Below, piece by piece: positions 25,421 to 37,561 of a stretch of 46,760 nt of DNA. Location: the IMG/VR virus record IMGVR_UViG_3300025782_000022. One strand, written 5' to 3'. Source of the DNA: a virus. A program made the translations under genes and the position numbers. Below the pieces are notes generated by a model that ran no database searches, was not told the origin of the DNA, and saw only the letters and a list, made by a program, of their open reading frames with translations. The first letter of the stretch is position 1. Every line of letters begins with the position of its first letter.

Positions 25421-25752
25421 GTGAAGCACCACATAAAGCCGTTGATTTCATTAGGGATAACGCCGCCGCATTTGGTAAAGCTAAATCCAACAGGGTATTT
25501 TTGGAAGAATTTAGGAAATCCAAAAAAGCATTACTTATGAAAGATGCGCTTTTAAAAGGGATTGAAGCCGCCAACGCCCAAGAACGTGAAGCATACGCAG
25601 ACCCTGAATACGAAAAACTGCTAAAAGGGCTTGCAGAAGCCATCGAAACCGAAGAAACGCTAAAGTGGCAAATGACCGCCGCAAGCCTGAAAGTTGAGAT
25701 TTGGCGAACCGAAGAAGCTACAAACAGGGTTCAAGACAGGGCGCACCAATGA
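25417..25752 (+). CDS. Hypothetical helical protein (111 aa)
   Basis: Start moved to ATG 25417 (ATGA overlap, SD aagggga). Confidence 0.6.
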   Translation: MSEAPHKAVDFIRDNAAAFGKAKSNRVFLEEFRKSKKALLMKDALLKGIEAANAQEREAYADPEYEKLLKGLAEAIETEETLKWQMTAASLKVEIWRTEEATNRVQDRAHQ

Positions 25753-26021
25753 ACTCCAAGCTAACCCAAGCGGACAGGGATTATTTGTTTCATGTGAAAC
25801 AATTACCCTGCGGAGTATGCGAAGCACCCCCGCCATCGTCCGCACATCACATTAAACAGGGGCTACACCATACCTGCATACCCCTTTGCGCCGATTGTCA
25901 CCAGGGCGGTTTTAACGGCATACATGGACAAAGGCGCATCTGGAACATAAAGAAACTGGATGAACTAATAGTTCTCAACAACACCATCAAAAAGCTATTT
26001 CAGAAGTATGATATTATTTAA
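25749..26021 (+). CDS. HNH-type nuclease (Ref/DUF968-like) upstream of terminase
   Basis: CGVCEAPPPSSAHHIKQG...IPLCADCHQGGFNGIH. Start at ATG 25749 (ATGA overlap). Confidence 0.65.
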   Translation: MNSKLTQADRDYLFHVKQLPCGVCEAPPPSSAHHIKQGLHHTCIPLCADCHQGGFNGIHGQRRIWNIKKLDELIVLNNTIKKLFQKYDII

Positions 26022-26286: not shown

Positions 26287-26838
26287 ATGGGCAGAAAAAG
26301 CAAGCTATCACCCGAACAATGGGAAGAAATTAAGAGAAGGCACATTGTCCTTGGGGAATCTGTTAACTCGCTTGCCAAGATGTATGGTGTTAACGAAAAA
26401 ACCATTCGGATATATTTAGGACAAAATAAAACTCCGAAGCAGTCCGAAACTCCGAACTCGGAACAAAAAACCATTAAGGAAGCCATTCAGGATGCTTCAA
26501 TAACGGTCATAGAAGCCCTCAAGTCAACAGGATTGCCCGAAGATGACCAAAGGATAGCCCTTGAACTTGCAAACACTCTGACAAGCGTTAAAAGCAAGCT
26601 GAGTGAGACTGCAAACAATAATCTAATCGTAGCCCTTGAGTTGTCCAAAATATCCAGGGAAGGCGTAAAGCATATAAAAAGTGAAACAGGCGTTGATGTT
26701 GATATGCTCAAGCAATTACAAGTATTAGGAAACGTCACAAACAATTTTGCGTTCCTGGGCAATGAAGTTAACAAGTCAGCCAAAGCCAAAATCGAAGTTG
26801 ATAACGACCTGCTGATCGAAGGCGGATTACCTTTGTGA
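26287..26838 (+). CDS. terS: Terminase small subunit (putative)
   Basis: N-terminal HTH-like KLSPEQWEEIKRRHIVLGESVNSLAKMYGVNEKTIRIYL. It lies directly upstream of, and overlaps, the large-subunit gene. Confidence 0.6.
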   Translation: MGRKSKLSPEQWEEIKRRHIVLGESVNSLAKMYGVNEKTIRIYLGQNKTPKQSETPNSEQKTIKEAIQDASITVIEALKSTGLPEDDQRIALELANTLTSVKSKLSETANNNLIVALELSKISREGVKHIKSETGVDVDMLKQLQVLGNVTNNFAFLGNEVNKSAKAKIEVDNDLLIEGGLPL

Positions 26839-28121
26839 AAATAATACTACCAACCCTGCACAGTGGTCAGGTCGATATATTTAAACAACGTACCAGGGCG
26901 AATATTGTCAGGTGCGGTCGGCGATGGGGAAAGACTAAGCTACTGGAAACAATCGCTTGTAATTCGGCGGCGTTTGGCGAATCGGTAGGAATATTTGCCC
27001 CTGAATACAGGCAGTTGCAAGAACCTTGGGATCATATTAAGGAAATCCTGCAACCTATTATTATTTCATCCTCCAGGAGTGAGGGAACAATTAAGGTTAG
27101 GTCAGCCAACGGAAAACAAGGCAAAGTTGATTTTTGGATACTGAATGACAATGAATTAGCAGGTCGAGGGCGGGAATATAACAAAACTTTGGTGGATGAG
27201 GCGGCGTTTACGAAGTCACCCCAAATGCTCGATATTTGGCGCAAGTCGATTAAGCCCACAATGTTGACCACTAAAGGCACTTCATGGGTATTTAGTACGC
27301 CCAACGGTATAGATGCCGAAAACTTCTTTTATGAGGCTTGCAACAACCCCGAAATGGGTTTTACGGAGTTTCATGCCCCAACCAGTACAAATCCTTATGT
27401 ACCCGCAGATGAACTCGAAAAAGAACGCCTGGTCAATCATCCCCTGGTATTTAAGCAGGAGTTTTTAGCCGAATTTGTAGATTGGTCAGGAGTTGCGTTT
27501 TTTTCGATGGACAAAATGCTTGTGGATGGCAAGCCAGTACCCTACCCTCAAAAATGCGATGGTGTTTATGCGGTGATTGATACTGCGGTGAAATCAGGCA
27601 AAGAACACGATGGAACTGCAATTATTTATATCGCAATGAATAAGTATTATGGTCATCCCCTAGTAATACTTGACTGGGATATTGTGCAAATTGACGGTGC
27701 AATGCTTGAAAATTGGATGCCAAGCGTTTTCAGCAGACTAGAAGAATTGTCCAAGGCAACCAGTTGCAAGCTAGGTGTAGTTGGCAGTTTTATTGAGGAT
27801 GCGGCGGCAGGTTCAATACTACTTCAGCAGGGGCGAACCAGGGGATGGAATACTCATGCAATAGATAGTAAACTCACTTCAGTTGGAAAAGATGAACGTG
27901 CAATTAGCGTTTCTGGTCATTTTCACCAAGAAAAGATTAAAATCAGCGATTATGCGTTCGATAAGGTCGTTAATTTTAAAGGCGCAAGCAGAAATCACTT
28001 GATTACTCAGGTCACAGGCTTTAGGATTGGCGATAAAGATGCGCACAAAAGAGCAGACGATTTGCTTGACGTTTTCACTTATGGGATAGCAATTGGAGTT
28101 GGTGATAAATATGGCTACTAA
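26835..28121 (+). CDS. terL: Terminase large subunit
   Basis: Walker A-like CGRRWGKTK, Walker B KTLVDEAAF, and a C-terminal nuclease-like region. It sits before the portal gene. Confidence 0.8.
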   Translation: MKIILPTLHSGQVDIFKQRTRANIVRCGRRWGKTKLLETIACNSAAFGESVGIFAPEYRQLQEPWDHIKEILQPIIISSSRSEGTIKVRSANGKQGKVDFWILNDNELAGRGREYNKTLVDEAAFTKSPQMLDIWRKSIKPTMLTTKGTSWVFSTPNGIDAENFFYEACNNPEMGFTEFHAPTSTNPYVPADELEKERLVNHPLVFKQEFLAEFVDWSGVAFFSMDKMLVDGKPVPYPQKCDGVYAVIDTAVKSGKEHDGTAIIYIAMNKYYGHPLVILDWDIVQIDGAMLENWMPSVFSRLEELSKATSCKLGVVGSFIEDAAAGSILLQQGRTRGWNTHAIDSKLTSVGKDERAISVSGHFHQEKIKISDYAFDKVVNFKGASRNHLITQVTGFRIGDKDAHKRADDLLDVFTYGIAIGVGDKYGY

Positions 28122-28130
28122 AGGATAAAT

Positions 28131-29543
28131 ATGTCATACGTTACAGTAAGTAATACTGCCGTTAATTCGGAATTGATGCAGATTTTAGAAGCCAATGAAA
28201 TCCAACCAGGTTCAGATTTAGGCTATCAGCTATGTAAGTTATTGTGGGAATTTCACCCACTTGGCGGGAAATTGGTTGAAAAGCCAATCAAATTAGCCCT
28301 ATCTAAGCCCCGAATCATTGCGGTGGATGCCGAACCCAAAGATATGCTTGTTGATGCGTTTAACAGGGAATGGGAAAGTCTTGGCGCAACGGCGCACATT
28401 CGTGACACCATGTTTCTGAAAAGGGTTTACGGTGCATCAGCTATCGTTTACGGCGCACCCAATATTCCAACAACAGAGCCAATTGACCCTTGGAAACTTT
28501 CCGAACTTAATTTGTATTTCAACCAATTAGACCCGCTGAACTTGGCGGGTTCTATCGTTACCAACCAGAACCCCAATGCTCCAGATTTTCAAAAGCCATT
28601 ACCTTACACAACTGCCGCAGGTCAACCTTATCATCCAAGCCGTTCAGTTGTGCTATTTAATGGCACTCCTATTTATTTAAGTTTCCAATCGTCAGGATTT
28701 GGTTTTACTGGTCGTTCAGTATTCCAAAGGGCTTTATACCCAATGAAGTCGTTTGTTCAGTCGATGGTGACTGATGACCTAGTGACGTTCAAGGCGGGAT
28801 TGTTAATTGCCAAGCAAAAACCCGCAGGTTCAATTGTTAATCGTTTGATGCAGACTGCCGCAGGTATCAAGCGCACCTATTTGCAGGAAGGCGTATCTGG
28901 CAATGTATTATCAATTGATATTGACGAAGCCATTGAAGCGTTAAATTTGACCAATACTGATACGGCGATGACAACGGCAAGAAATAATATTATTGCTAAT
29001 ATTGCCGCCGCCTCAGATGTTCCCGCTTTACTGTTAAAGGACGAAGCGTTCACCCAAGGATTTGGAGAAGGTACAGAAGATGCAAAAGCAATCGTCCAAT
29101 ACATTGATGGAATTAGGGAGGAAATGCACTCTCTTTATAAATTCTTTGACAAAATCGTTCAACATAGAGCATGGAATAAAGATTTCTTTGAAGCCGTTAA
29201 AAACAAATATCCTGAAACGTATGACAACAAAACGTATGAAGAAGCGTTCTATCATTGGCAGGAAAAATTCGATGCTTCATGGGAATCCCTCATGGAAGAA
29301 CCCGAATCAGAGAAGGTCAAAGTTTCGGATATTAAATTAAAAGGTATGACCGAAATACTGCGCACGATGTTGCCAGTTATTGACCCAATGAACAGGGCAA
29401 AATTGATGGAATGGGCGCAAGATAATATCAATGAAATGCCTGATATGTTCCAAAGCCACTTGGATTTGGATATTGAAAATCTAATGGATTATGAGCCGCC
29501 TACCCCAATGCCTGAACCTAAAGAACCTGCGGCAAAGGATTAA
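28131..29543 (+). CDS. Portal protein
   Basis: 470 aa, immediately after terL, with an acidic C-terminus. The family assignment (DUF1073-like) is tentative. Confidence 0.7.
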   Translation: MSYVTVSNTAVNSELMQILEANEIQPGSDLGYQLCKLLWEFHPLGGKLVEKPIKLALSKPRIIAVDAEPKDMLVDAFNREWESLGATAHIRDTMFLKRVYGASAIVYGAPNIPTTEPIDPWKLSELNLYFNQLDPLNLAGSIVTNQNPNAPDFQKPLPYTTAAGQPYHPSRSVVLFNGTPIYLSFQSSGFGFTGRSVFQRALYPMKSFVQSMVTDDLVTFKAGLLIAKQKPAGSIVNRLMQTAAGIKRTYLQEGVSGNVLSIDIDEAIEALNLTNTDTAMTTARNNIIANIAAASDVPALLLKDEAFTQGFGEGTEDAKAIVQYIDGIREEMHSLYKFFDKIVQHRAWNKDFFEAVKNKYPETYDNKTYEEAFYHWQEKFDASWESLMEEPESEKVKVSDIKLKGMTEILRTMLPVIDPMNRAKLMEWAQDNINEMPDMFQSHLDLDIENLMDYEPPTPMPEPKEPAAKD

Positions 29544-29545
29544 TT

Positions 29546-30214
29546 GTGCTATTTAAAAACTTAATAAATAATACATTTGTTGTTGCAATTGATGGATTGG
29601 AACAAGATTATTTGCGAGATAAAAATTATCGAATAGCTAGGGATTCTGATTTTAAAGAATCGGAACATCCAAGAGATGCTGACGGTAAATTTGCATCATC
29701 TGGAAACACCAAAAGCCAAGAAGGTACTTTGGAAAGAATGAAAAAAGAAGTTCCAGAATCAGTTGAGAATGAAATATTTGGTGAAACTGGATATATATAT
29801 TACACACCCCATAGACCAATTGAAAATTCTCAAGAAAAAATGTTAGGCACAAAAATTAAACCTTTACATGAAAGAGTTTTTGTATCTGATAAACCATTAA
29901 GTTCTGATAAATTAAATGACATTGAAGCAATACCAATTTCTCAAGAATCAAAGCATCAATTTGCTAAAGAATTAGCCGATTCGGGAGTTGTTGGGATGAT
30001 GAACAAAGATGGTAAAAGATTTTCTTTTGTTCATAAAAGCACAAAACACGATGGAAAAATACAAATAACCTATTATGATAAAAGTGGTGCAATTCTTGAT
30101 AGTCAACATAATGATAGAGCATCGGCTATTGAAGAATTAATTGAAGGTGGATTTATGAAAATTTTGCCTGAAGAAAAAGTAGGTTCATTGATTCAAAAAG
30201 TTATGGTGGGTTAA
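29546..30214 (+). CDS. EHPRD-xx-GKF leader protein 1 (222 aa, unknown C-terminal domain)
   Basis: GTG start. DFKESEHPRDADGKFASSG at 29663..29692. The N-terminal roughly 55 aa is paralogous to the next gene. Confidence 0.7.
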   Translation: MLFKNLINNTFVVAIDGLEQDYLRDKNYRIARDSDFKESEHPRDADGKFASSGNTKSQEGTLERMKKEVPESVENEIFGETGYIYYTPHRPIENSQEKMLGTKIKPLHERVFVSDKPLSSDKLNDIEAIPISQESKHQFAKELADSGVVGMMNKDGKRFSFVHKSTKHDGKIQITYYDKSGAILDSQHNDRASAIEELIEGGFMKILPEEKVGSLIQKVMVG

Positions 30215-31387
30215 ATGAAATTTAAAAATATTAAAACAGGCAATATTATTAATCTTCATGAACGGCTTATGCCGCTTTTTAAGTTTGTAATTCGTTCAGA
30301 CGAATATGTTTTTGTAAACGATGATTTTAAAGAACATGAACACCCAAGAGACCCAAGCGGAAAATTTACTTCTGGCGGTGGTGGTGGGGGCGCATCAGTT
30401 GAGCCTACCAAGACAGAAAAGCCAAGTTTGGAATTGTTAAAAGCGTATAACAAAGGCTTGAAAGAAATGCCAGGTTCGCCTAAGCAAAAGGAAACTTTGC
30501 AAGAAATCGAAAAGCTAAGAAGTTCTGAACCTGCACCAACTGAAAAACCCGCAGAAAAAAAAGGCAGAGGATTTGAAAAAGGCGGCGTTGATAAGCATGG
30601 ATTTGAAAGATCACCAGGACTAACCCCAAAACAAAGGCGAGTTGAAGGAACTTTTTACAACGCCATCAGAACCAATCAGCAACAATTGATTTCTGATTAT
30701 TGGCAAGCAATGAAGAAAGAAAAGTTTTTCAATACTATTGATGCTGACCAGGTTAAGAAATTAAGCCCTGCGTTCAGAAAAGATATGTCGATGGTTGGCG
30801 CAGTCCATGAGCCAAGTTCTCATTTGTCAAAAGTCATTTACAAACAAGCGTTAGAGAAAAAAGCCAGAGAAAACGATAAAAGCCCAACAATGTTTACAGC
30901 AGGTGGAAGCGGTTCAGGAAAGTCGGCTACTTCCCCCCTTGCGGCATCTATGTTTGGATTGAAGGACGATAACCTGGTTTACGATTCGGTTATGTCAACA
31001 TTCAAATCGTCCAAGCGCAAAGTTGACGAAGCACTTGATATGACCGAAGGTGATGCGGTGATTGTTTACACCAATACGCCTATTGAAAGGGCTTTAAAGT
31101 TCAACGCAATGCGTTCTAGGTCTGTATCTATTGACGTTCTAATTGAAGCGCATATGGGCGCATCTAAGACGGTGCATGAGATGCACGAACATTACAAAGA
31201 CAATCCGAGAGTTAAGATGCAAATTATCAATAATTTTGACGAACCGCATAATGTGCATTTGGGTACATTAAAAGGCGTATTTAAATACGACCCCGCAGTT
31301 ACCAGGCAAAAATTGGAACGCCAAGCTAAAGAAATGTTTGCTAAAGGCGAAATAGGTAAGGACAAGTTAAAAACACTTCTAGGGTAG
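30215..31387 (+). CDS. EHPRD-xx-GKF leader protein 2 with C-terminal zeta-toxin-like P-loop kinase domain
   Basis: DFKEHEHPRDPSGKFTSGGGGGG (30338..30367). ...VHEPSSHLSKVIY... is followed by the Walker A TAGGSGSGKS (30902..30925). Confidence 0.65.
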   Translation: MKFKNIKTGNIINLHERLMPLFKFVIRSDEYVFVNDDFKEHEHPRDPSGKFTSGGGGGGASVEPTKTEKPSLELLKAYNKGLKEMPGSPKQKETLQEIEKLRSSEPAPTEKPAEKKGRGFEKGGVDKHGFERSPGLTPKQRRVEGTFYNAIRTNQQQLISDYWQAMKKEKFFNTIDADQVKKLSPAFRKDMSMVGAVHEPSSHLSKVIYKQALEKKARENDKSPTMFTAGGSGSGKSATSPLAASMFGLKDDNLVYDSVMSTFKSSKRKVDEALDMTEGDAVIVYTNTPIERALKFNAMRSRSVSIDVLIEAHMGASKTVHEMHEHYKDNPRVKMQIINNFDEPHNVHLGTLKGVFKYDPAVTRQKLERQAKEMFAKGEIGKDKLKTLLG

Positions 31388-31440
31388 ATGTATTATAATA
31401 ATAGACAAGGTGATTCAGTTCACCAGAAAGAGAGTATCTT

Positions 31441-31620
31441 ATGAGTATTGATTTTGAAAAAGCTAAAACAGAATGGTTAAAAACTCTCAACGGTAAAAGT
31501 TTGGAGCAATACAAAGCCGAAAATGACCAACGCATTTTGCTTGCGATGGAGAAAATCGGCAACGAACCCAAAAATAAAAAGCTATGGGACGAAGCTGAAA
31601 GCATGGAAGATTCTGAATAG
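31441..31620 (+). CDS. Small protein (59 aa) missed by the ORF track
   Basis: MSIDFEKAKTEWLKTLNGKSLEQYKAENDQRILLAMEKIGNEPKNKKLWDEAESMEDSE, followed by a strong terminator. Confidence 0.55.
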   Translation: MSIDFEKAKTEWLKTLNGKSLEQYKAENDQRILLAMEKIGNEPKNKKLWDEAESMEDSE

Positions 31621-31644
31621 TTTAGAAAACAAAAGACCACAAAT

Positions 31645-31677
31645 AACCCCCTTTAGAAATATTGGGGGTTTTTTTTC
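31645..31677 (+). terminator. Intrinsic terminator
   Basis: aaccccc-12 nt loop-gggggtt followed by a T8 run. Confidence 0.8.
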
Positions 31678-31690
31678 GACCAAAAAGCAA

Positions 31691-31749
31691 CAAATTGCAA
31701 ATAAATAATACTTATCCTATTGTGTTTATGCTTAATAGGTATAAAATAA
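31691..31749 (+). promoter_or_regulatory. Island element E1 (inverted repeat plus GGTATAAAATAA box)
   Basis: caaattgcaaataaataatacTTATCCTATTgtgtttatgcttAATAGGtATAAaataac. The box lies 46 nt before the next ATG. Confidence 0.6.
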
Positions 31750-31785
31750 CAATTGTGGTGGTTAAGAAGTTAAAGGAGAAAAATC

Positions 31786-31935
31786 ATGGAACTAGCAAGA
31801 TACGGTTACTTGGTGATTCATGGAATTACGGAAGTTCGGGCGATATACCTGGCGGCAAAAATCAAAAGGCATTACGGTCGTGCGAGAGCCGCTTTAACGA
31901 TGATTAGAAGATACGAAGCCACAGGTCATTTTTAA
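31786..31935 (+). CDS. Small basic protein (49 aa), first gene after E1
   Basis: SD aaaggagaaaaatc ATG. MELARYGYLVIHGITEVRAIYLAAKIKRHYGRARAALTMIRRYEATGHF. Confidence 0.55.
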   Translation: MELARYGYLVIHGITEVRAIYLAAKIKRHYGRARAALTMIRRYEATGHF

Positions 31936-31954
31936 CACTTTGAAAGGAAATCAA

Positions 31955-32311
31955 ATGAAAGTTGCAGAAAAAATCAATTACCTTGGAATTTACATGGAAG
32001 CTACTCGTGCAGGTTGTGCGGCAGTCAATGGCATGGACGTTACGCCCGCAATTTTTACAAATGATGGCAAAGAATTCTTTTACGTTGCTGATGGTGCTTG
32101 CGGATTTGCATGGGTTGTCATTCGTGACATAAAGTTTGCAAACTTCCTGAAAAAAATGGGTGTCGGTCGCAAAAGATACAACGGCGGTTATTTGATCTGG
32201 GTATTTGATTACAACCAGAGTATGCAGAAAAAAGAAGCATACGCCGAAGCGTTTGCGCAGGTTCTAATAGATAACGGCATTAATGCTTATGCTGAGAGAA
32301 AATTAGATTAA
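31955..32311 (+). CDS. Hypothetical protein (118 aa)
   Basis: Start set at the ATG after gaaaggaaatcaa. The ORF-track TTG start reads through the SD. Contains GACGFAWV...GGYLIW...QSMQKKEAYAEAFAQVL. Confidence 0.7.
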   Translation: MKVAEKINYLGIYMEATRAGCAAVNGMDVTPAIFTNDGKEFFYVADGACGFAWVVIRDIKFANFLKKMGVGRKRYNGGYLIWVFDYNQSMQKKEAYAEAFAQVLIDNGINAYAERKLD

Positions 32312-32316
32312 TCAAT

Positions 32317-32334
32317 GCCCCTGCGGGGGCTTTT
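32317..32334 (+). terminator. Short GC hairpin plus T4 (weak terminator/attenuator or processing site)
   Basis: gcccc-tgcg-ggggc-tttt between two island genes. Confidence 0.4.
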
Positions 32335-32347
32335 AAAAGGAAATCAA

Positions 32348-32506
32348 ATGACGTACGAACAAGCAAAAAAAATAGTGGGAAGACAACCCAAATGGGCAAT
32401 TAAAAATATGCTCAAAGCCCTGCAAATGCTCCCTTGGTTAAATACTGATGAAGACAACGAAAGATTACTGGCTTGCAAAATTTACTTGAAAGGAAATAAA
32501 GAATGA
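32348..32506 (+). CDS. Small protein (52 aa)
   Basis: ATG after aaaaggaaatcaa; [52 protein letters not shown]. Confidence 0.6.
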
Positions 32507-32721
32507 AATTTACCAAAGCAAAAAATATTTGGCAAATGACCAAAGATGAAATGGCAAAGTTGCCAAAAGGTCAATGGGTTTATGCAGGTGAAAAATCAAG
32601 TTTAGGCAGGTTTTACGGAGTTCGGAAAAGTGGAGTTGTAGTTGTTGCTTGGAAGGACAACGCAAAAAATAACGATTACTTCGATTACTGCAAAAAACTT
32701 TACCAATATTCTTTAAATTAA
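32503..32721 (+). CDS. Small protein (72 aa)
   Basis: ATGA coupling; SD gaaaggaaataaaga. Confidence 0.65.
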
Positions 32722-32778
32722 TTTGTTGCAATTATGCCTAATCAGTATATTTATATGCCAATTAGGTATAAAATAAAG
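32718..32778 (+). promoter_or_regulatory. Island element E2
   Basis: ttaatttgttgcaaTTATGCCTAATcagtatatttatatgccaATTAGGTATAAaataaagg. The box lies 44 nt before the next ATG. Confidence 0.6.
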
Positions 32779-32810
32779 GCTTAGAAGGTAATAAAAAAAG
32801 GAAATTAATC

Positions 32811-33077
32811 ATGTATGTAGTTTATGAACCAAATATCCAATTAAATGCAAAAAATCAAAAAGTTATTGAAATTTGTAGAAATGGTGGATACGTTAAATAT
32901 CAATTGGAAAAAAACTATTTCGGTCAAGAAAAATTTCAAATTCGTGTTTATGATTTAAATGGTGATGTAGTGAAAGGGTTTGGGTATAAAGCAATTTATA
33001 ACGCAATTGCAAGTGGTATTTTGGTTAAAAAAGAAATTCCAAATACAAGTGCTTATGCAACTATTTGGGCAATTTAA
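32811..33077 (+). CDS. Small protein (88 aa)
   Basis: SD aaaaggaaattaatc ATG. Confidence 0.65.
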   Translation: MYVVYEPNIQLNAKNQKVIEICRNGGYVKYQLEKNYFGQEKFQIRVYDLNGDVVKGFGYKAIYNAIASGILVKKEIPNTSAYATIWAI

Positions 33078-33099
33078 TTAATTATTGAAAGGAAATCAA

Positions 33100-33285
33100 A
33101 TGGAAACAATTTTTGAACACTTCCCAATAACAAACAGCCAAGTAATCGGTATCGCCCCTGACGGAACAACATTAAGAACCTGGAACGAAGGCGAAAGAAC
33201 TTTCATGGAGACTTACGGTTACACCCCTCCAATTGGCGAATTCGGTATCAGATATGGTTTAGTAATTGTGGTTGAAACAACTTAA
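33100..33285 (+). CDS. Small protein (61 aa)
   Basis: ATG after gaaaggaaatcaa; METIFEHFPITNSQ... Confidence 0.6.
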   Translation: METIFEHFPITNSQVIGIAPDGTTLRTWNEGERTFMETYGYTPPIGEFGIRYGLVIVVETT

Positions 33286-33297
33286 AAAGGAAATCAA

Positions 33298-33456
33298 ATG
33301 GAACTCCAACAAAATCAATTTTGGCAAACCAGAGCAAGGGGAACAAACGACCAGGAATATCAAATTTACCTGGCTTGTGCTGATGACGGTAACGGTGGTG
33401 ACATTGGCAGAAATGGTGAACCGCTTTTAACTTATGAGGAGTGGTTAGCAAACTAA
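33298..33456 (+). CDS. Small protein (52 aa) missed by the ORF track
   Basis: ATG after aaaaggaaatcaa; MELQQNQFWQTRARGTNDQEYQIYLACADDGNGGDIGRNGEPLLTYEEWLAN. Confidence 0.55.
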   Translation: MELQQNQFWQTRARGTNDQEYQIYLACADDGNGGDIGRNGEPLLTYEEWLAN

Positions 33457-33458
33457 AA

Positions 33459-33518
33459 ATAATTTGTTGTAAATATACCAAACTAGAATAAACAATGCTA
33501 ATTTGGTATAAAATAAAG
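33459..33518 (+). promoter_or_regulatory. Island element E3
   Basis: ataatttgttgtaaaTATACCAAActagaataaacaatgctaaTTTGGTATAaaataaagt. The box lies 52 nt before the next ATG and has an extended -10-like TGgTATAAA. Confidence 0.6.
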
Positions 33519-33558
33519 TCTGAGTTAGGAAATTAAACAAACAAACAAAGGAAATAAA

Positions 33559-34056
33559 ATGAAAAGAACACCAAGTATCCCCGCCCAAGCCGCTACGATG
33601 ATTAGAAATTATCTAAAAGCAAACAACATTGCAGGTAGCGTAAAAAGTGAAATTTATAGCATGGGCAGTAGCGTTAATGTTTACGTTACTGACATAGAGC
33701 CAGAAGTATTAGACAAATTAAGAACCTTTGCTAATCAATTCCAATACGGTCGTTTTGACGGTATGCAAGACCTTTACGAATACACAAATAGTAGAGATGA
33801 CCTGCCCCAAGTCAAATACGTTTTTGTTAACAACACACTTAGCCCTGAACTTAGTCAAGAGATTTGGAACTTTGCCAGAAACTATTACGCAGGAATGGAA
33901 GATGCGCCAGAAGATCAAGCCCTGGCAAGCAAGTTTTATAACCCACAAATGAATGAATACGGCAACACCATTATTTGGATGTTGTTCGATGGTAAATACA
34001 TGAGGGATGGTTACTGGAATTTTGCGAAAGGTATTGAGGAAGTTTTAGAGGCTTAA
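33559..34056 (+). CDS. Hypothetical protein (165 aa), possibly an LPD-type (polyvalent-protein-associated) domain
   Basis: ...IAGSVKSEIYSMGSSVNVYVTD...QYGRFDGMQDLYEYTN...PQVKYVFVN. From memory this resembles a domain seen in conjugative-element and phage polyvalent proteins. Unverified. Confidence 0.6.
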   Translation: MKRTPSIPAQAATMIRNYLKANNIAGSVKSEIYSMGSSVNVYVTDIEPEVLDKLRTFANQFQYGRFDGMQDLYEYTNSRDDLPQVKYVFVNNTLSPELSQEIWNFARNYYAGMEDAPEDQALASKFYNPQMNEYGNTIIWMLFDGKYMRDGYWNFAKGIEEVLEA

Positions 34057-34073
34057 TTTTTAACAATCAACCT

Positions 34074-34096
34074 GCCCCCCAAGTGGGGGCTTTTTA
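34074..34096 (+). terminator. Intrinsic terminator closing the island
   Basis: gccccc-caagt-gggggc followed by ttttt. Confidence 0.75.
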
Positions 34097-34098
34097 TT

Positions 34099-34320
34099 AT
34101 GGAAACAAAAACACGAAACAGGGGCGCATTTGGATACGTTCCAAATCCTAGCGAAATAATACTTGCCAGGGGTAATTTATCTCAAGCCAAATGCGCTTCT
34201 TTAATTTATACTACCCAAGTTCGTTGGAGCAATTACGAAAACGGCAAAAGTCGAATACATCCTGCGATGTGGGAATTATTTCTTGAAAAACGAAAAAGGC
34301 TAAGTAATGACGTTTTATGA
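34099..34320 (+). CDS. Small HTH (XRE-like) DNA-binding protein (73 aa)
   Basis: LSQAKCASLIYTTQVRWSNYENGKSRIHPAMWELF is a helix-turn-helix-like pattern. It overlaps the MuF-like gene start. Confidence 0.55.
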   Translation: METKTRNRGAFGYVPNPSEIILARGNLSQAKCASLIYTTQVRWSNYENGKSRIHPAMWELFLEKRKRLSNDVL

Positions 34321-35110
34321 AGTTTTGACCGAAGCAATTAACGACATAATGGAATATGGGTTCGATTCTGAAAAAAGACTTCAGGATTGGATGGAAACAA
34401 TTAAAATTGCCGCTTACAACAGTTTAATCCCTGAATCGCAGGTCGAGCAGGAAATGATTAAAGCAATGACCGCCGCATATACCAGATTGGTCGTAAAGGG
34501 CGGATTGGTCAGAAAAAACGTCACCAAATACGATGTTGAACGGCTTAAGCCAAAATTAAGAAACGAACTAGACCGCAGAATTTCAACTGCGGCTAACCTT
34601 ATTAAATTAAACCGCCAAGAAGCCATTAGCAACACCCTGCGAAGGTTTCAAGGATGGGCAACGTCCATACCCCCAGGCGGTAGCAAAGTAACGGACAGGA
34701 ACAAAACTAAGAAGGATATTAGAAAATCCTTGAGTGCTATTACTTTTGAACAACGCAGGGTTGTAATAGATCAAACCCATAAATTGGTTTCAAATATTAA
34801 TGATATTGTTGCGGTTGATAACGGCGCAATTGCGGCGAAGTGGCATAGTCATTGGCGGCAGGTAAACTATGATTACAGAAAAGATCATAAAGAACGTGAC
34901 GATAAGATATATATTATTCGCAACTCATGGGCGGACGAAAAGGGATATTTAAAGCATCCCAATGGTTATACCGATGAAATAACGCAACCAGGCGAAGAAG
35001 TATTTTGTAGGTGCAATTACCAATACATCTACAATTTAAGTTCGGTAAAAGAATTGTTGACAACAAAGGGCGAAAAAGCACTACAATCTGCCAAAATTAC
35101 TTTTAAATAA
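34307..35110 (+). CDS. Head morphogenesis protein, SPP1 gp7 / Mu F-like
   Basis: C-terminal ...WHSHWRQVNYDYRKDHKERDDKIYII...PGEEVFCRCNYQYIY (H...PG..CRC signature). Confidence 0.7.
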   Translation: MTFYEVLTEAINDIMEYGFDSEKRLQDWMETIKIAAYNSLIPESQVEQEMIKAMTAAYTRLVVKGGLVRKNVTKYDVERLKPKLRNELDRRISTAANLIKLNRQEAISNTLRRFQGWATSIPPGGSKVTDRNKTKKDIRKSLSAITFEQRRVVIDQTHKLVSNINDIVAVDNGAIAAKWHSHWRQVNYDYRKDHKERDDKIYIIRNSWADEKGYLKHPNGYTDEITQPGEEVFCRCNYQYIYNLSSVKELLTTKGEKALQSAKITFK

Positions 35111-35113
35111 TTT

Positions 35114-37561
35114 ATGCCATTTGAATCGGAAGCCCAAAGAAAAGCTATGTATGCCGCCGCAAGCGGTCATGGCAATATTGGCATCCCTAAAGAAGTGGCA
35201 AAGAAATTTATTAAACACTCAGAAGACGGCGATATTCCTGAAGAATCTACGCCCCTTGCAACTCCCGAATTTAAAGAAGATGATGCTGACCCTTGTTGGG
35301 AAGGTTACAAACAATTAGGAATGAAGCAAAAAGGCGGCAAAGAAGTGCCCAATTGCGTTCCAGAGGATGATTCTGAGGCTTGGGAGACCAAGGAAGGTAA
35401 GAATAAAAAAGGCGGTTTAAATGCCAAAGGCAGGGCTTCTTACAACAAAGAGCATGGCGCACATTTAAAAGCCCCTCAACCTGAAGGCGGGTCAAGGAAA
35501 GAATCATTTTGCGCCCGAATGTCAGGCATGAAAGAAAAGCTAACTTCTGACAAAACAAAACACGACCCAAATTCCAGGATTAATTTAGCATTAAAAAAAT
35601 GGAAGTGCGATGCTGATTGGGATAGTTCCAAAGTTCAATCAGAATTAAAAGGCTTGTCAGCCAAATTAGCAGAAATTACTAAAAGTATTACAACTTTAAA
35701 AGCTGATGATTTAGCCGTTGAAAGAATTGCAACTGGTTCAAAATCTGATGCTATGCCAATTGACAAAGATGCAGGGGCATTAGGTCGTGCCGCAGGAATA
35801 ATGTTTTTGACCAATGACGGCAAAGTATTATTGATTCGCAGGGGAGATGGTGGCGATTATCCTCAAACTTGGGCAGTACCAGGCGGTCATCAAAATAAAG
35901 AAGATGCAAACTTAGAAGAAGCGGCTAGGCGTGAATGTTTTGAAGAAACAGGTATCAAGTACGAAGGCAAGTTGGAAGTATTATTTGATGACGGTCAATT
36001 TTGTACTTATATTGCCAGAAATTTTGAGCAAGTTCCAGTAACTTTGAACCATGAATCAACTGGATTTGATTGGTGTCATGTTGATAATCCCCCAATGCCT
36101 TTGCACCCAGGACAAAATATTTGTTTCAAAATTGCAAGTGCAAAAACAGAATTCGATTATGCTGAATTAATTAGGCAAGATTTATTGCCAAGCCCTCAAA
36201 TGTATGCTAATGTTATGCTATTAGCTATTCGCATTACAGGAACAGGGTTAGCTTATCGTTCAAGTATTGGTGAGCACGTTTGGCGTGATTCCAGTTTATA
36301 TTTGAATGATGACTTTTTAAAGCGTTGTAATGGGTTGATTGTGATAATGGATCACCCTGAAACTGCGGTTTTGACTTCCAAGGAATTCAAGGACAGAGCA
36401 GTTGGAAGTATTATTCTGCCTTATATTAAGGGAGATGAAGTTTGGGGTATTGCGAAAATCTACGACCAAGATGCGGTAAACACCATTTTGACCGAAGAAG
36501 TTAGCACTAGCCCATCTGTTGTTTTTGACCAAACAGCAGGTAACACGACACTAACGACTGAGAATGGAGAGCCACTCTTGATCGAAGGTGTACCATTTCT
36601 TTTAGATCATATTGCTATCGTAACTGAAGCAAGGGGTTCTAAAGGAGTATGGGACAAGGGTGGCGAACCCGCAGGAGTATTATTAACTAACCAAGAGGTA
36701 TCTGAAATGACAGACAACAAAGTAGAGCCGAAAGCAGATGCTCAAGGCGATAAACTAGATGCCATTCTTTCGGCTCTCAGCTCCATGAGTGTGAGAATTG
36801 ATGAGATGGAAAAAAATCTTCCCGCCCCTCCACTCGTTACTGCCGCTGATAAAAAGCGCAAAGACGAAGATGCGAAAATGGACGATGATGATGAGGAATC
36901 AGAATCAGAAGCCAAACACTTCATGGAACGCAAAATGGATTCCAAAAAGCGTAAAGATGAAGATATGGAAGAAAAGCACATGGAATCAAGAAAAGCAGAT
37001 AAGCATCGTAAAGATGATGATGACGAAGATGACATGAAAAAAGCCAAGAAAGATGCCGAAGGCTCTGACATGGGCGAAGAAAAAATGCCCTCAGGTGAAA
37101 TGAAGCCTGATGACGATGATGCCAAGAAGGATGAAGAAGCTATGAAGATGGACGAAGCCGCCGCAGAATACGCAGATGCACAAGCAAAATGCGATTCAGT
37201 TTTAGCCGCTTTTGGTAAGTCAGCTTCCCGCCCACTACAAGGCGAATCATTGATGGCTTATAGGAAACGTCTTCTCAGAGGATTGCAAGCGTATTCTGAT
37301 AGCTACAAGGATATTAACCTTGCAACTATAAAAGATGCAAAATTACTCGAATTAGCTGAAAAGCAAATTATGAATGATGCAATGACTGCCGCAAGAACAT
37401 CTAGTCATGTTCCTGGAGATCAATTGATTGCTATTCAATCAAGAGATTCAAGCGGTCGTACAATCACTAAGTATCGTGGTTCAATGGAAGCATGGCTTGG
37501 CGATTTCAAAGTTCCTCCACAAAGAGCAACTACTTTCCATACACCTAACAACCAACGCTAA
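35114..37561 (+). CDS. Multidomain head protein (815 aa): N-terminal small motifs, Nudix hydrolase domain, prohead protease/scaffold-like (DUF2213-like) region, K/D/E-rich low-complexity segment, C-terminal scaffold-like tail
   Basis: Nudix box GGHQNKEDANLEEAARRECFEETGI (aa 257-281). ...LIVIMDHPE...VGSIILPYIKGDEVWGIAKIYD. Charged repeat region at aa 578-685. It lies between the MuF-like and capsid genes. Confidence 0.75.
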   Translation: MPFESEAQRKAMYAAASGHGNIGIPKEVAKKFIKHSEDGDIPEESTPLATPEFKEDDADPCWEGYKQLGMKQKGGKEVPNCVPEDDSEAWETKEGKNKKGGLNAKGRASYNKEHGAHLKAPQPEGGSRKESFCARMSGMKEKLTSDKTKHDPNSRINLALKKWKCDADWDSSKVQSELKGLSAKLAEITKSITTLKADDLAVERIATGSKSDAMPIDKDAGALGRAAGIMFLTNDGKVLLIRRGDGGDYPQTWAVPGGHQNKEDANLEEAARRECFEETGIKYEGKLEVLFDDGQFCTYIARNFEQVPVTLNHESTGFDWCHVDNPPMPLHPGQNICFKIASAKTEFDYAELIRQDLLPSPQMYANVMLLAIRITGTGLAYRSSIGEHVWRDSSLYLNDDFLKRCNGLIVIMDHPETAVLTSKEFKDRAVGSIILPYIKGDEVWGIAKIYDQDAVNTILTEEVSTSPSVVFDQTAGNTTLTTENGEPLLIEGVPFLLDHIAIVTEARGSKGVWDKGGEPAGVLLTNQEVSEMTDNKVEPKADAQGDKLDAILSALSSMSVRIDEMEKNLPAPPLVTAADKKRKDEDAKMDDDDEESESEAKHFMERKMDSKKRKDEDMEEKHMESRKADKHRKDDDDEDDMKKAKKDAEGSDMGEEKMPSGEMKPDDDDAKKDEEAMKMDEAAAEYADAQAKCDSVLAAFGKSASRPLQGESLMAYRKRLLRGLQAYSDSYKDINLATIKDAKLLELAEKQIMNDAMTAARTSSHVPGDQLIAIQSRDSSGRTITKYRGSMEAWLGDFKVPPQRATTFHTPNNQR

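Follow-up and report, generated by a model that had tools for sequence, protein, structure and literature searches.

An exchangeable island between the portal and MuF-like genes of a phage pairs leader-bearing cargo genes with small genes accompanied by a putative Aca10-family regulator

The viral genome IMGVR_UViG_3300025782_000022, analysed here as a single stretch of 46,760 nt (hereafter the window), carries an island at positions 29546-34320, between its portal gene and its MuF-like head morphogenesis gene. The island contains 12 well-supported open reading frames (ORFs), all on the + strand and each with a Shine-Dalgarno sequence (Table 1); an initial annotation, made from the sequence alone, had counted 13, and the thirteenth was not found. 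Its GC content (36%) is lower than that of the head genes on either side (42%). The island consists of two modules. The left one (29546-31681) comprises the genes E1 and E2, each of which begins with a short leader sequence, the small ORF o59 and the terminator T1. The right one (31700-34320) comprises three promoter-like elements, eight small ORFs and the gene hth73, which encodes a small helix-turn-helix (HTH) protein. The two strong intrinsic terminators of the initial annotation were recovered and a third hairpin was added to them. No transmembrane segment was predicted in any island protein, and none of these proteins matched a defence system in PADLOC.

Table 1. Genes and regulatory features of the island and of its conserved flanks (dG, folding free energy; pI, isoelectric point; RBS, ribosome-binding site).
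Feature	Position	Strand	Description
portal	28131..29543	+	470 aa; left conserved flank; PF06381 Phage_portal_3 (DUF1073-type), 1.4e-15
E1	29546-30214	+	222 aa
E2	30215-31387	+	390 aa, basic, pI 9.5
o59	31441-31620	+	59 aa, acidic, pI 4.8
T1	31641..31681	+	intrinsic terminator at the end of the portal-E1-E2-o59 unit; GC-rich hairpin, dG -13.5 kcal/mol, then T8
P1	31700..31760	+	promoter-like element; palindromic box ATGCTTAATAGGTAT (31728-31742) overlapping TATAAA (31740-31745)
o49	31786-31935	+	49 aa, basic; Shine-Dalgarno and ATG
o118	31955-32311	+	118 aa
internal hairpin	32317..32334	+	between o118 and o52b; hairpin and T-run GCCCCTGCGGGGGCTTTT, dG -11.7 kcal/mol
o52b	32348-32506	+	52 aa; RBS block AAAGGAAATCAAATG
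o72	32503-32721	+	72 aa, basic
P2	32723..32772	+	promoter-like element; TTGTTG-17-TATATT, then TATAAA; two palindromic boxes, 32734-32748 and 32755-32769
o88	32811-33077	+	88 aa
o61	33100-33285	+	61 aa, acidic
o52	33298-33456	+	52 aa, pI 4.1; RBS block
P3	33464..33512	+	promoter-like element; TTGTTG-17-AATAAA, then TGG-TATAAA
o165	33559-34056	+	165 aa, acidic
T2	34074..34096	+	intrinsic terminator; 6 GC pairs and T-run, dG -12.9 kcal/mol
hth73	34099-34320	+	73 aa; 3' end overlaps the MuF start
MuF-like gene	34307..35110	+	right conserved flank; phrog_324 'head morphogenesis', 2e-26

E1 and E2 share the same layout, in which a leader is followed by a junction motif of the form [F/W]xExxHPRDxxGKF, a glycine linker and the cargo. 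More precisely, both contain DFKE-x-EHPRD-xx-GKF followed by a Gly/Ser-rich stretch. In E1, leader B (residues 1-34) precedes the motif DFKESEHPRDADGKF (nt 29648-29692) and the cargo spans residues ~60-222; in E2, leader A (residues 1-37) is followed by the motif DFKEHEHPRDPSGKF (nt 30323-30367), a Gly6 linker and a putative kinase cargo. These are the only EHPRD motifs of the whole window in any frame, and they bear out the two EHPRD-leader paralogs of the initial annotation. The left module is contiguous with the late portal gene, the portal stop being separated by 2 nt from the E1 start, and no promoter-like element of their own was found ahead of E1, E2 or o59.

IMG/VR gave 80 related loci (L numbers below), across which portal identity is 44-99%, and 57 loci, the window among them, hold both flanks. 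Among these 57, the gap between portal and MuF varies from 0 to ~5 kb: it is 0-60 nt in ~20 loci, 290-550 nt in several, ~1.7 kb in several others, 2.4 kb in L074 and 4-5 kb in 14. The two genes are also adjacent in every isolated relative inspected, where the portal-MuF-scaffold-capsid order is intact. The initial annotation had taken adjacency as the normal arrangement, which these relatives confirm and which agrees with Jamet 2017 (PMC5576092). The 168 island ORFs cluster into ~48 families, and their order is shuffled among islands. Moreover, the flanks of L074, L084 and L004 are 94-97% identical to those of the window, yet other cassettes are found inside. In L074, with flanks 96% identical at the nucleotide level, the 2.4-kb insert encodes one 715-aa leader-bearing protein and a 71-aa ORF. 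In L084, E1 is kept and the cargo of the next gene is swapped, the homology ending at nt 30325, in the last codon of the E2 leader, and resuming at 34306; homology with both L074 and L084 restarts exactly at this position, the MuF start. L004 lacks E1, so that E2 lies directly 3' of the portal gene, and its breakpoints (29559/30215) are the two leader starts. The range of gap sizes, the shuffled families and these three natural variants establish that the island is accessory and that its flanks are conserved, as the initial annotation had proposed. Relatives carrying the same genes in a conserved order, which would have spoken against that proposal, were not what we found, since the contents are replaced in genomes that are 96% identical. 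For the same reason it is hardly credible that the ORFs encode ordinary conserved accessory head-assembly proteins, as their position in the head module might suggest: they are absent from ~20 relatives and from all isolated relatives inspected, and the replacement is wholesale.

At positions 30212-30217, the TAA of E1 abuts the ATG of E2 in the same frame, and the two genes start with the similar sequences GTGCTATTTAAAAAC and ATGAAATTTAAAAAT. Because L004 lacks exactly the E1 cassette and because the DNA at the E1 and E2 starts is similar, these comparisons suggest that the E1 cassette was gained or lost through recombination at the leader starts. Two translational explanations of this region were considered and set aside. 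Nothing supported a read-through of the stop codon from E1 into E2, and the insertion of a cassette between similar leader starts explains the layout better. With E1 in the -1 frame and an A_AAG sequence just 5' of the portal stop, a programmed -1 frameshift from portal into E1 was the other candidate; it was rejected because A_AAG is not kept in L084 and L004 (~95-96% nucleotide-identical) and because the same stop-NN-start arrangement precedes MuF in island-less relatives.

The leaders are found with several cargos. Leader A (MKFKNIKTGNII...IRSDEYVFVNDD) stands ahead of two junction types, the second being HWITLHG...GQHVLING, and of four cargo types: the E2 kinase, the ART-like 715-aa protein of L074, HExxH proteins (L013 and L017) and the E1 cargo (P0083). 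The ART-like label (L074) and the HExxH-like label (L013/L017) are motifs read by eye that Pfam did not confirm. Leader B stands ahead of E1, of a 163-aa protein in L030 and of a 166-aa protein in L006-L009. Five homologues of E1 were found, one of them with leader A instead and two with a different N-terminus; the latter two sit in an SU10-like podophage structural module. In the AF2 model of E1, mediocre overall, the predicted local distance difference test (pLDDT) score is below 50 for residues 1-67 and 70-87 for the cargo, and a search of this fold against the PDB gave no match. A sequence search of E1, E2, o118, o165 and o88 against known structures returned nothing below E 0.09.

According to profile comparisons, the E2 cargo is a P-loop kinase of the zeta-toxin family. 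E2 itself scores 21.2 bits against PF06414, for a cut-off of 22.3, its orthologue in L034 scores 29 bits, and the E2 family profile matches the Neisseria Zeta_1 toxin (6EPH) with an E-value of 1.3e-13, which agrees with the zeta-like P-loop domain seen in the initial annotation. A precomputed PF06414 match exists for 11 of the 27 listed homologues of the E2 cargo. The Walker A sequence reads GGSGSGKS, and its G-G-S-G-S-G-K stretch is invariant or nearly so among homologues. The o59 family was detected with jackhmmer in nine loci, all of which contain a zeta-like cargo, and o59 lies directly downstream of it in five. No similarity to an epsilon-type antitoxin was detected in o59. Because of this complete co-occurrence, and because an acidic protein faces a basic one, o59 may neutralise the E2 kinase, as an antitoxin or an immunity protein. 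The locus L085 (8152-10734) belongs to an unrelated phage with a PF04860 portal, and there an LPD29 gene comes next after a MuF-zeta kinase fusion, with an o59-like 59-aa ORF behind it; kinase, LPD29 and o59 are therefore a trio that stays together in different types of head module.

In other phages the same cargos are part of head proteins. The E2-type kinase is fused to MuF (PF04233) in P0009-12, P0017, P0018, P0020, P0021 and P0023, to the portal (PF06381) in P0003, P0019, L026, L108, L115 and L166, and to a NUDIX protein in P0014. The sequence HPR..G.F..GGG is found at the fusion point in P0003, P0014 and P0019, and a degenerate version of it in P0017, a fusion to MuF. In many sister phages the portal reading frame runs on to take in the first island gene, and the whole protein is 698-863 aa long (e.g. 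L011, L026 and L030). Indeed, in L011, L016, L030, L031 and L046-L052 the portal ORF continues through an HPRD motif into a Tas1-like (p)ppApp synthetase (family F2), which a sequence search of the PDB matched to 6OX6 (4.6e-15) and for which Pfam gave no RelA/SpoT match. In L011, L016, L030 and L031 an Aph1-like HD_4 hydrolase is encoded just 5' of the Aca10-like gene. Judged by these homologies, the Tas1-like portal extension and HD_4 are a portal-borne version of the Apk2/Aph1 system; a pairing in which the toxin is a (p)ppApp synthetase and the immunity protein a hydrolase has been shown experimentally for a MuF toxin (PMC10083569). In the window, E1 and E2 each have a single cargo domain and no MuF domain, and MuF is a short protein in its own right.

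The junction motif is not confined to these loci. A degenerate DNA pattern for EHPRD..GKF matched at least 117 IMG/VR contigs and, among the matches listed, the motif was located near the N-terminus, internally or twice in proteins of 83-2,319 aa. A Pfam analysis covered 87 IMG/VR proteins with the motif, redundancy removed. The effector domains found were ARTs (21 proteins), TopoIB (7), NUDIX (6), Zeta (5), 2H phosphoesterase (3) and Acb1 (2), together with RelA_SpoT, GNAT, PBECR1 and LPD3; Acb1 is an anti-CBASS nuclease. The carriers were Phage_portal_3 (16), DUF2213 (6), Phage_Mu_F (2), a lambda-type portal (portal_2) and an XkdF-type S78_2 protease. DUF2213 is the family of Pa193 gp24, a putative scaffolding protein that stays on the capsid interior in the mature virion (PMC11456595). 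Thus all the carriers, portal, MuF and scaffold types, belong to the inside of the capsid. Where the motif gene stands alone, its recognisable neighbours are portal, MuF, DUF2213, terminase or prohead-protease genes.

A profile of 41 positions built on the motif was compared with 1.84 billion representative proteins and matched 3,563 of them at E<=1e-3, of which 367 reach E<=1e-10. The best-scoring matches are proteins of 232-7,334 aa with 2-18 copies of the motif each, in which the motif and its Gly linker punctuate the boundaries between modules, in combinations such as NUDIX+His_Phos+DUF2213, ART-PolyVal+InPase+TopoIB, portal+TopoIB and Zeta+oxidoreductase. Two giants, P0090 (7,334 aa) and P0173 (5,313 aa), carry 18 and 15 copies, respectively, and look like many-module polyproteins. 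No Pfam or NCBIfam model covers the motif, the string 'HPR' has 0 occurrences in the text of the paper on polyvalent proteins (PMC5512222), and a literature search for 'EHPRD' returned unrelated papers only, none of them on phages.

The right module is organised differently. A 22-nt promoter-like repeat is present in three copies, against 0.00 expected from 100 shuffles, and nowhere else in the window. Elements P1-P3 contain 15-bp boxes, upstream of the likely transcription start, with the palindromic consensus ATACCTAATAGGTAT, which overlaps the -10 element. In P3, an inverted repeat (33474-33489 / 33495-33510) is 88% complementary. A reading of these inverted repeats as RNA hairpins or covarying stems was rejected, because each of them is one or two quasi-palindromic 15-bp boxes conserved as DNA in relatives. 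Sister islands carry analogous box repeats. The box is found one to three times in each of the 13 islands that bear an hth73-type gene and is 14-fold enriched there over the flanking DNA; in islands without the HTH gene it is absent, bar one match with three mismatches in the effector ORF of the L017/L018/L021/L022 type, which we regard as a chance match.

The product of hth73 is, by sequence, an HTH regulator of the Aca10 family, and the likeness to aca that the initial annotation saw in the terminal HTH gene thus goes beyond analogy. phmmer aligned its residues 14-66 with residues 5-59 of P. citronellolis Aca10 (PDB 7XI5) with an E-value of 1.1e-9 and 43% identity, over the HTH and the dimerisation helices, and 19 columns are invariant across Aca10 and six island HTH proteins. 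As a dimer, Aca10 represses the acrIC7-acrIC6-aca10 operon, and its site, ATACGCTCATTGAGCGTAT, overlaps the promoter; its key residues are R44 for DNA binding, G49 and E52 for the dimer, and also Q22 and Q37 (PMC9410881). Q22, R34, E52 and the equivalents of H47-P48 and W51 are kept in hth73, and Q37 is replaced by Ser. The box has the same ATAC...GTAT ends as the Aca10 site. We therefore propose that hth73 may repress P1-P3 through the boxes. A tblastn search with hth73 gave no match in isolated phages. In most relatives the HTH gene is the last one of a box-promoter operon that begins with an LPD29 gene; in the window, T2 replaces the middle gene of this operon, between o165 and hth73.

The proteins encoded by the eight ORFs downstream of these promoter-like elements are small, soluble and charged; seven of them have no relatives of assigned function. 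The islands of L011 and L059 each carry an ORF 66% identical to o49 and one 80% identical to o61, and neither o49 nor o61 has a family match. o118 matches phrog_22149 (unknown function; 9e-7) and has no PDB or PADLOC match. Homologues of o52b (family F23) and o88 (family F22, 66% identical) are found in L011, and o88 has no family or PDB match. o72 matches phrog_21585 (1.1e-20) and resembles hypothetical proteins of 22 isolated phages of Proteobacteria (36-48% identity), and for o52 neither a homologue in the loci compared nor a family match was found. The eighth, o165, is to judge from its homologues and predicted fold a solo LPD29-family protein. It scores 24.1 bits against PF18847 (LPD29), for a cut-off of 27, and most of its 54 homologues have a precomputed PF18847 match. 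Its AF2 model has a pLDDT of 91; in BFVD, Foldseek matched it to nothing but other LPD29 proteins of viruses, with E-values down to 1e-11, and the fold had no match in the PDB (best E 0.02, TM 0.3). The o165 family is present in 12 of the 13 HTH-bearing islands, and an o165-type gene adjoins MuF in the unrelated phages L085 and L086. By guilt by association, the eight small proteins are candidate anti-defence proteins. The initial annotation could put a name to none of the small proteins. Names can now be proposed for three island proteins: E2 as a kinase of the zeta-toxin family, o165 as LPD29 and hth73 as a regulator of the Aca10 family.

A near-identical initiation block, TTGAAAGGAAATCAAATG, lies 5' of five small ORFs (31939-31958, 32332-32351, 32486-32500, 33084-33103 and 33282-33301), and sister islands have the related blocks CACGAAAGGA..ATG and ATTGAAAGGA..ATG ahead of their small ORFs. 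Such blocks may serve as micro-homology for the shuffling of cassettes. L035 (10105-10541) and the same region of L034 contain three CATCATATTTCCTTTCG repeats, the reverse complement of the RBS-plus-ATG block; these two islands therefore hold three opposite-strand small genes between the effector and the box-promoter units, for which the window has no counterpart.

The initial annotation had likened the whole region to anti-CRISPR (acr/aca) islands. The analogy fits the right module, through the Aca10 homology and the association of box and HTH gene in 13 of 13 islands, and does not extend to E1, E2 and o59, which form a separate module related to effectors fused to portal, MuF and scaffold proteins. 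One may nevertheless imagine that the entire 4.8 kb, E1 and E2 included, is a single acr/aca island with cytoplasmic early products, the EHPRD leader being merely a common N-terminal domain of paralogs. Hypervariability and a low GC content throughout the island would suit this view, as would the Aca10 homology and the box-bearing promoters. However, E1, E2 and o59 abut the portal stop and lie upstream of T1 and of all box promoters, effector islands without HTH gene or boxes exist (L074, L084, L013 and L017), and a covalent fusion of the same cargos to portal, MuF and scaffold-type proteins would make no sense for a cytoplasmic early protein. A single acr/aca island is thus quite improbable.

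The right module could also be composed of lambdoid morons, that is, autonomous promoter-gene-terminator units expressed from the prophage and acting in lysogenic conversion or superinfection exclusion. The backbone of the phage is lambdoid-like (RecT/YqaJ, divergent early region, Rz/GH108 lysis), and the low GC content and the module's own promoter-like elements and terminators inside a late operon are what morons would show. Exclusion functions, however, typically rely on membrane or secreted proteins, and there are none among the products, nor does any product match a PADLOC defence system; the family of the regulator has so far been tied to acr operons, and a non-exhaustive search of the window turned up neither an integrase nor an attachment site. 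We regard morons as very improbable.

The strongest rival is that the whole island is a polymorphic-toxin locus of the MuF type. E1 and E2 would be antibacterial toxins, carried by the particles or set free along with them, that act on competitors or on kin that superinfect; the small ORFs would provide cognate or orphan immunity from promoters of their own and so protect the lysogen, and the HTH protein would regulate immunity. The cargos are indeed often of toxin type (the zeta kinase, the Tas1-like synthetase, the ART-like and HExxH-like proteins identified by eye, and the ARTs among motif proteins), and each effector type has its small downstream ORF: o59/F20 for zeta, F8 for HExxH, F28 for the ART-like protein and HD_4 for the synthetase. 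Immunity by Aph1 and Tis1 has been shown for a MuF toxin (PMC10083569), and the cassette swaps bounded by leaders resemble the displacement of C-terminal toxin domains. Yet there are eight small ORFs for two effectors, and families F1, F3, F5 and F9 accompany different effectors, so most small ORFs track no toxin. Moreover, the regulator is homologous to an anti-CRISPR-associated repressor, and the cargos linked to the motif include non-toxic enzymes of counter-defence type (Acb1, NUDIX, 2H and TopoIB). On balance a toxin-immunity locus appears unlikely.

We propose instead, as the probable though far from certain explanation, that the portal-MuF junction is a recombination hotspot for two kinds of host-directed weaponry, injected effectors on the left and Aca-regulated small genes on the right. 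The left module would be translated late, from the head operon and together with the portal, and the ~37-aa leader and the junction would bring the cargo into the interior of the procapsid, near portal, MuF and scaffold, from where it would leave with the DNA at the next infection. Because the same cargos are fused to portal, MuF and scaffold proteins in other phages, we infer that E1 and E2 are capsid-loaded injected effectors, an unfused variant of the MuF/portal polymorphic toxins and of polyvalent proteins. In the producing or lysogenic cell, o59 would hold the kinase in check. On entry, the right module would fire from strong promoters: three sigma-70-like promoters, each overlapped by a 15-bp palindrome, would drive eight small soluble proteins, and hth73 would then bind the palindromes and shut the early burst down. 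The products may disable host defence, and some may instead neutralise the injected effectors, as HD_4 in relatives suggests. Cassettes would be swapped by recombination at the 5' ends of leaders, at promoter/RBS blocks and at the MuF start. More tentatively, and with less than even confidence, we suggest that the motif [F/W]-x-E-x-x-H-P-R-x-x-x-G-[K/Q/R]-F with its Gly linker is a general, unnamed capsid-interior cargo tag or processing site, which bounds the carrier and each injected module and at which modules might be cut free. Cleavage at the motif is only an idea, prompted by the [F/W]-x-E before HPR, which recalls the sites of the T4 prohead protease.

Several observations weigh against this explanation. 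P1-P3 were not picked up by a generic sigma-70 scan, in which promoter-like sites were no more frequent than expected (17 against 22.4); of the three promoter-like repeats of the initial annotation, the repetition is thus solid and the promoter character less so. In hth73 the critical R44 of Aca10 is replaced by Ser, with the adjacent R45 kept, and G49 by Ala, and the box has 15 bp against the 19 bp of the minimal Aca10 site. Since T2 separates o165 from hth73, the regulator may be made mainly from late read-through transcripts. No small ORF matched a known Acr or other anti-defence protein in Pfam, PHROG, PADLOC or the PDB. LPD29 genes lie beside MuF in phages without the HTH gene, and o165 may for this reason belong functionally with the head cargo; likewise, the right module may be partly an immunity locus, because the immunity-type HD_4 gene lies inside the Aca-type operon of relatives. 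Finally, the junction motif may serve as a linker, be cut by a protease or work as a docking peptide, and leader and motif are predicted to be disordered, so that no fold supports a docking role.

Judging by its gene layout, the window has the look of a complete lambdoid-like phage genome. It has tail genes at 1-13 kb and, near 15 kb, Rz-like and GH108 lysis genes; a leftward early arm with RecT and YqaJ is followed by a DUF1376 replication gene and then by the head module, in the order terminase (26835-28121), portal, island, MuF-like gene, an 815-aa DUF6321+NUDIX+DUF2213 protein, a 206-aa protein and the major capsid protein. The MuF-like ORF has no Pfam match and is 49% identical to gp45 of Actinobacillus phage pPE4, encoded directly 3' of the portal. 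The 815-aa protein (35114-37561, + strand) has an acidic Lys-rich tail and no HPR motif, and its residues 406-691 weakly match phrog_2229 'head maturation protease' (3.4e-4). Since its NUDIX domain is fused to DUF2213, a putative scaffold of the Pa193 gp24 type, this phage probably has a NUDIX enzyme built into the inside of its capsid. A 106-aa ORF (25701-26021, + strand) situated just upstream of the packaging genes has the Cys/His pattern CGVC...HH...CADCH...NGIHG, read by eye in the translation, and looks like an HNH endonuclease; HNH endonucleases of that kind are often associated with terminases. A nucleotide search of isolated phages gave no match. Isolated relatives, with portals ~46% identical to that of the window, infect Klebsiella, Yersinia, Pantoea, Actinobacillus, Shewanella and E. 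coli. The sole relative in genome collections, L084 (CAIWKX010000066.1), is a 16.5-kb all-phage contig in a metagenome-assembled genome labelled 'uncultured Bacteroidetes'; a Bacteroidetes host is doubtful because of the strong Shine-Dalgarno sites, the Rz-type spanin and the relatives infecting Proteobacteria.

Each half of the island has known counterparts, acr-aca loci on one side and MuF- or portal-fused effectors and polyvalent proteins on the other. Four things appear to be new: the unfused form of the cargo, tagged with a leader and sited where portal meets MuF; the junction motif, a delimiter that is very widespread and, it appears, has no name yet; the presence of both modules together in a single exchangeable hotspot; and the orphan candidates to which an Aca10-family gene points. 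The arrangement suggests a two-stage counter-defence at a single exchangeable locus, with ready-made delivered effectors beside immediately expressed genes. If the motif is indeed a tag, the ~3,563 motif proteins would represent a large hidden catalogue of injected phage effectors, of which the leader-only design of E1 and E2 would be the minimal natural form, and eight new candidates for anti-defence would come from the Aca10-controlled module next to them. The virion carriage, injection and purpose of MuF- and portal-linked toxins were posed as an open question (PMC10083569), and this lineage offers natural isogenic variants with fused effectors, with unfused leader-bearing effectors and without effectors. 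The motif is also a simple sequence handle for candidate injected effectors among thousands of phage proteins, and might serve to load foreign cargo into capsids. In the same way, the putative Aca10-family repressor and its conserved candidate operators flag eight orphans, and ~40 more families in sister islands, in freshwater phages.

Bacteriophage T4 offers a precedent for cargo that is carried in the head and leaves it with the DNA, a behaviour also predicted for effectors fused to MuF or portal. Its internal proteins IPI-III and Alt have an N-terminal capsid-targeting sequence that is removed by the prohead protease, the Dar proteins of P1 being comparable, and gp21 cuts in an L/I-x-E context. 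As in T4, a short N-terminal leader precedes unrelated cargos, the genes lie in or near the head module, host-modifying enzymes are among the cargos, and the invariant [F/W]-x-E before HPR resembles L/I-x-E. In contrast, there is no sequence similarity, the leader is longer (~37 aa), and the motif is also internal and repeated. With epsilon/zeta systems such as the Neisseria Zeta_1 toxin (6EPH), E2 shares the profile match and the Walker A GGSGSGKS, and it has a small acidic partner ORF; it differs in the order, toxin then partner, in a partner without similarity to epsilon, and in a kinase that bears a phage leader or is fused to a head protein.

JBD30 and other Mu-like Pseudomonas phages reportedly carry acr-aca loci in their head-gene block. 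The island resembles such loci in its location inside a late head module and in a content that varies between related phages. With the acrIC7-acrIC6-aca10 operon of P. citronellolis (PMC9410881) it has in common a terminal small HTH protein homologous to Aca10, a palindrome that overlaps the promoter and has ATAC...GTAT ends, and small unrelated ORFs upstream. However, it has three promoter units and eight ORFs, against one promoter and one to three acr genes; its palindrome is of 15 bp instead of 19, R44 and G49 are not conserved, a terminator precedes the HTH gene and no known Acr is encoded upstream.

The left module is closest to effectors of head proteins. MuF polymorphic toxins (PMC5576092), Apk2-Tis1-Aph1 (PMC10083569) among them, likewise combine toxin-type domains, a portal/MuF position, small candidate immunity ORFs next to them and swapped C-terminal domains. 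In the window, by contrast, the cargo is a separate gene with a short leader and not a MuF fusion, and MuF is of the 'short' type; in the closest relatives the carrier is the portal and not MuF, and the passages of PMC5576092 consulted make no mention of the junction motif. E1 and E2 also differ from polyvalent proteins, known from phages and from conjugative elements (Iyer, Burroughs, Anand, de Souza, Aravind 2017, PMC5512222, which cites Alt), in being 'monovalent' and unbundled, with one cargo each, where the family is defined by two or more disparate effector domains per polypeptide in the setting of a virion or a T4SS. They nevertheless draw on the same repertoire of domains, namely Zeta, RelA/SpoT, ART-PolyVal, InPase, TopoIB, NUDIX, 2H, PBECR, LPD29 and LPD3; polyvalent proteins are likewise predicted to be packaged in the head and injected with the DNA, and the junction motif punctuates such giants 2-18 times.

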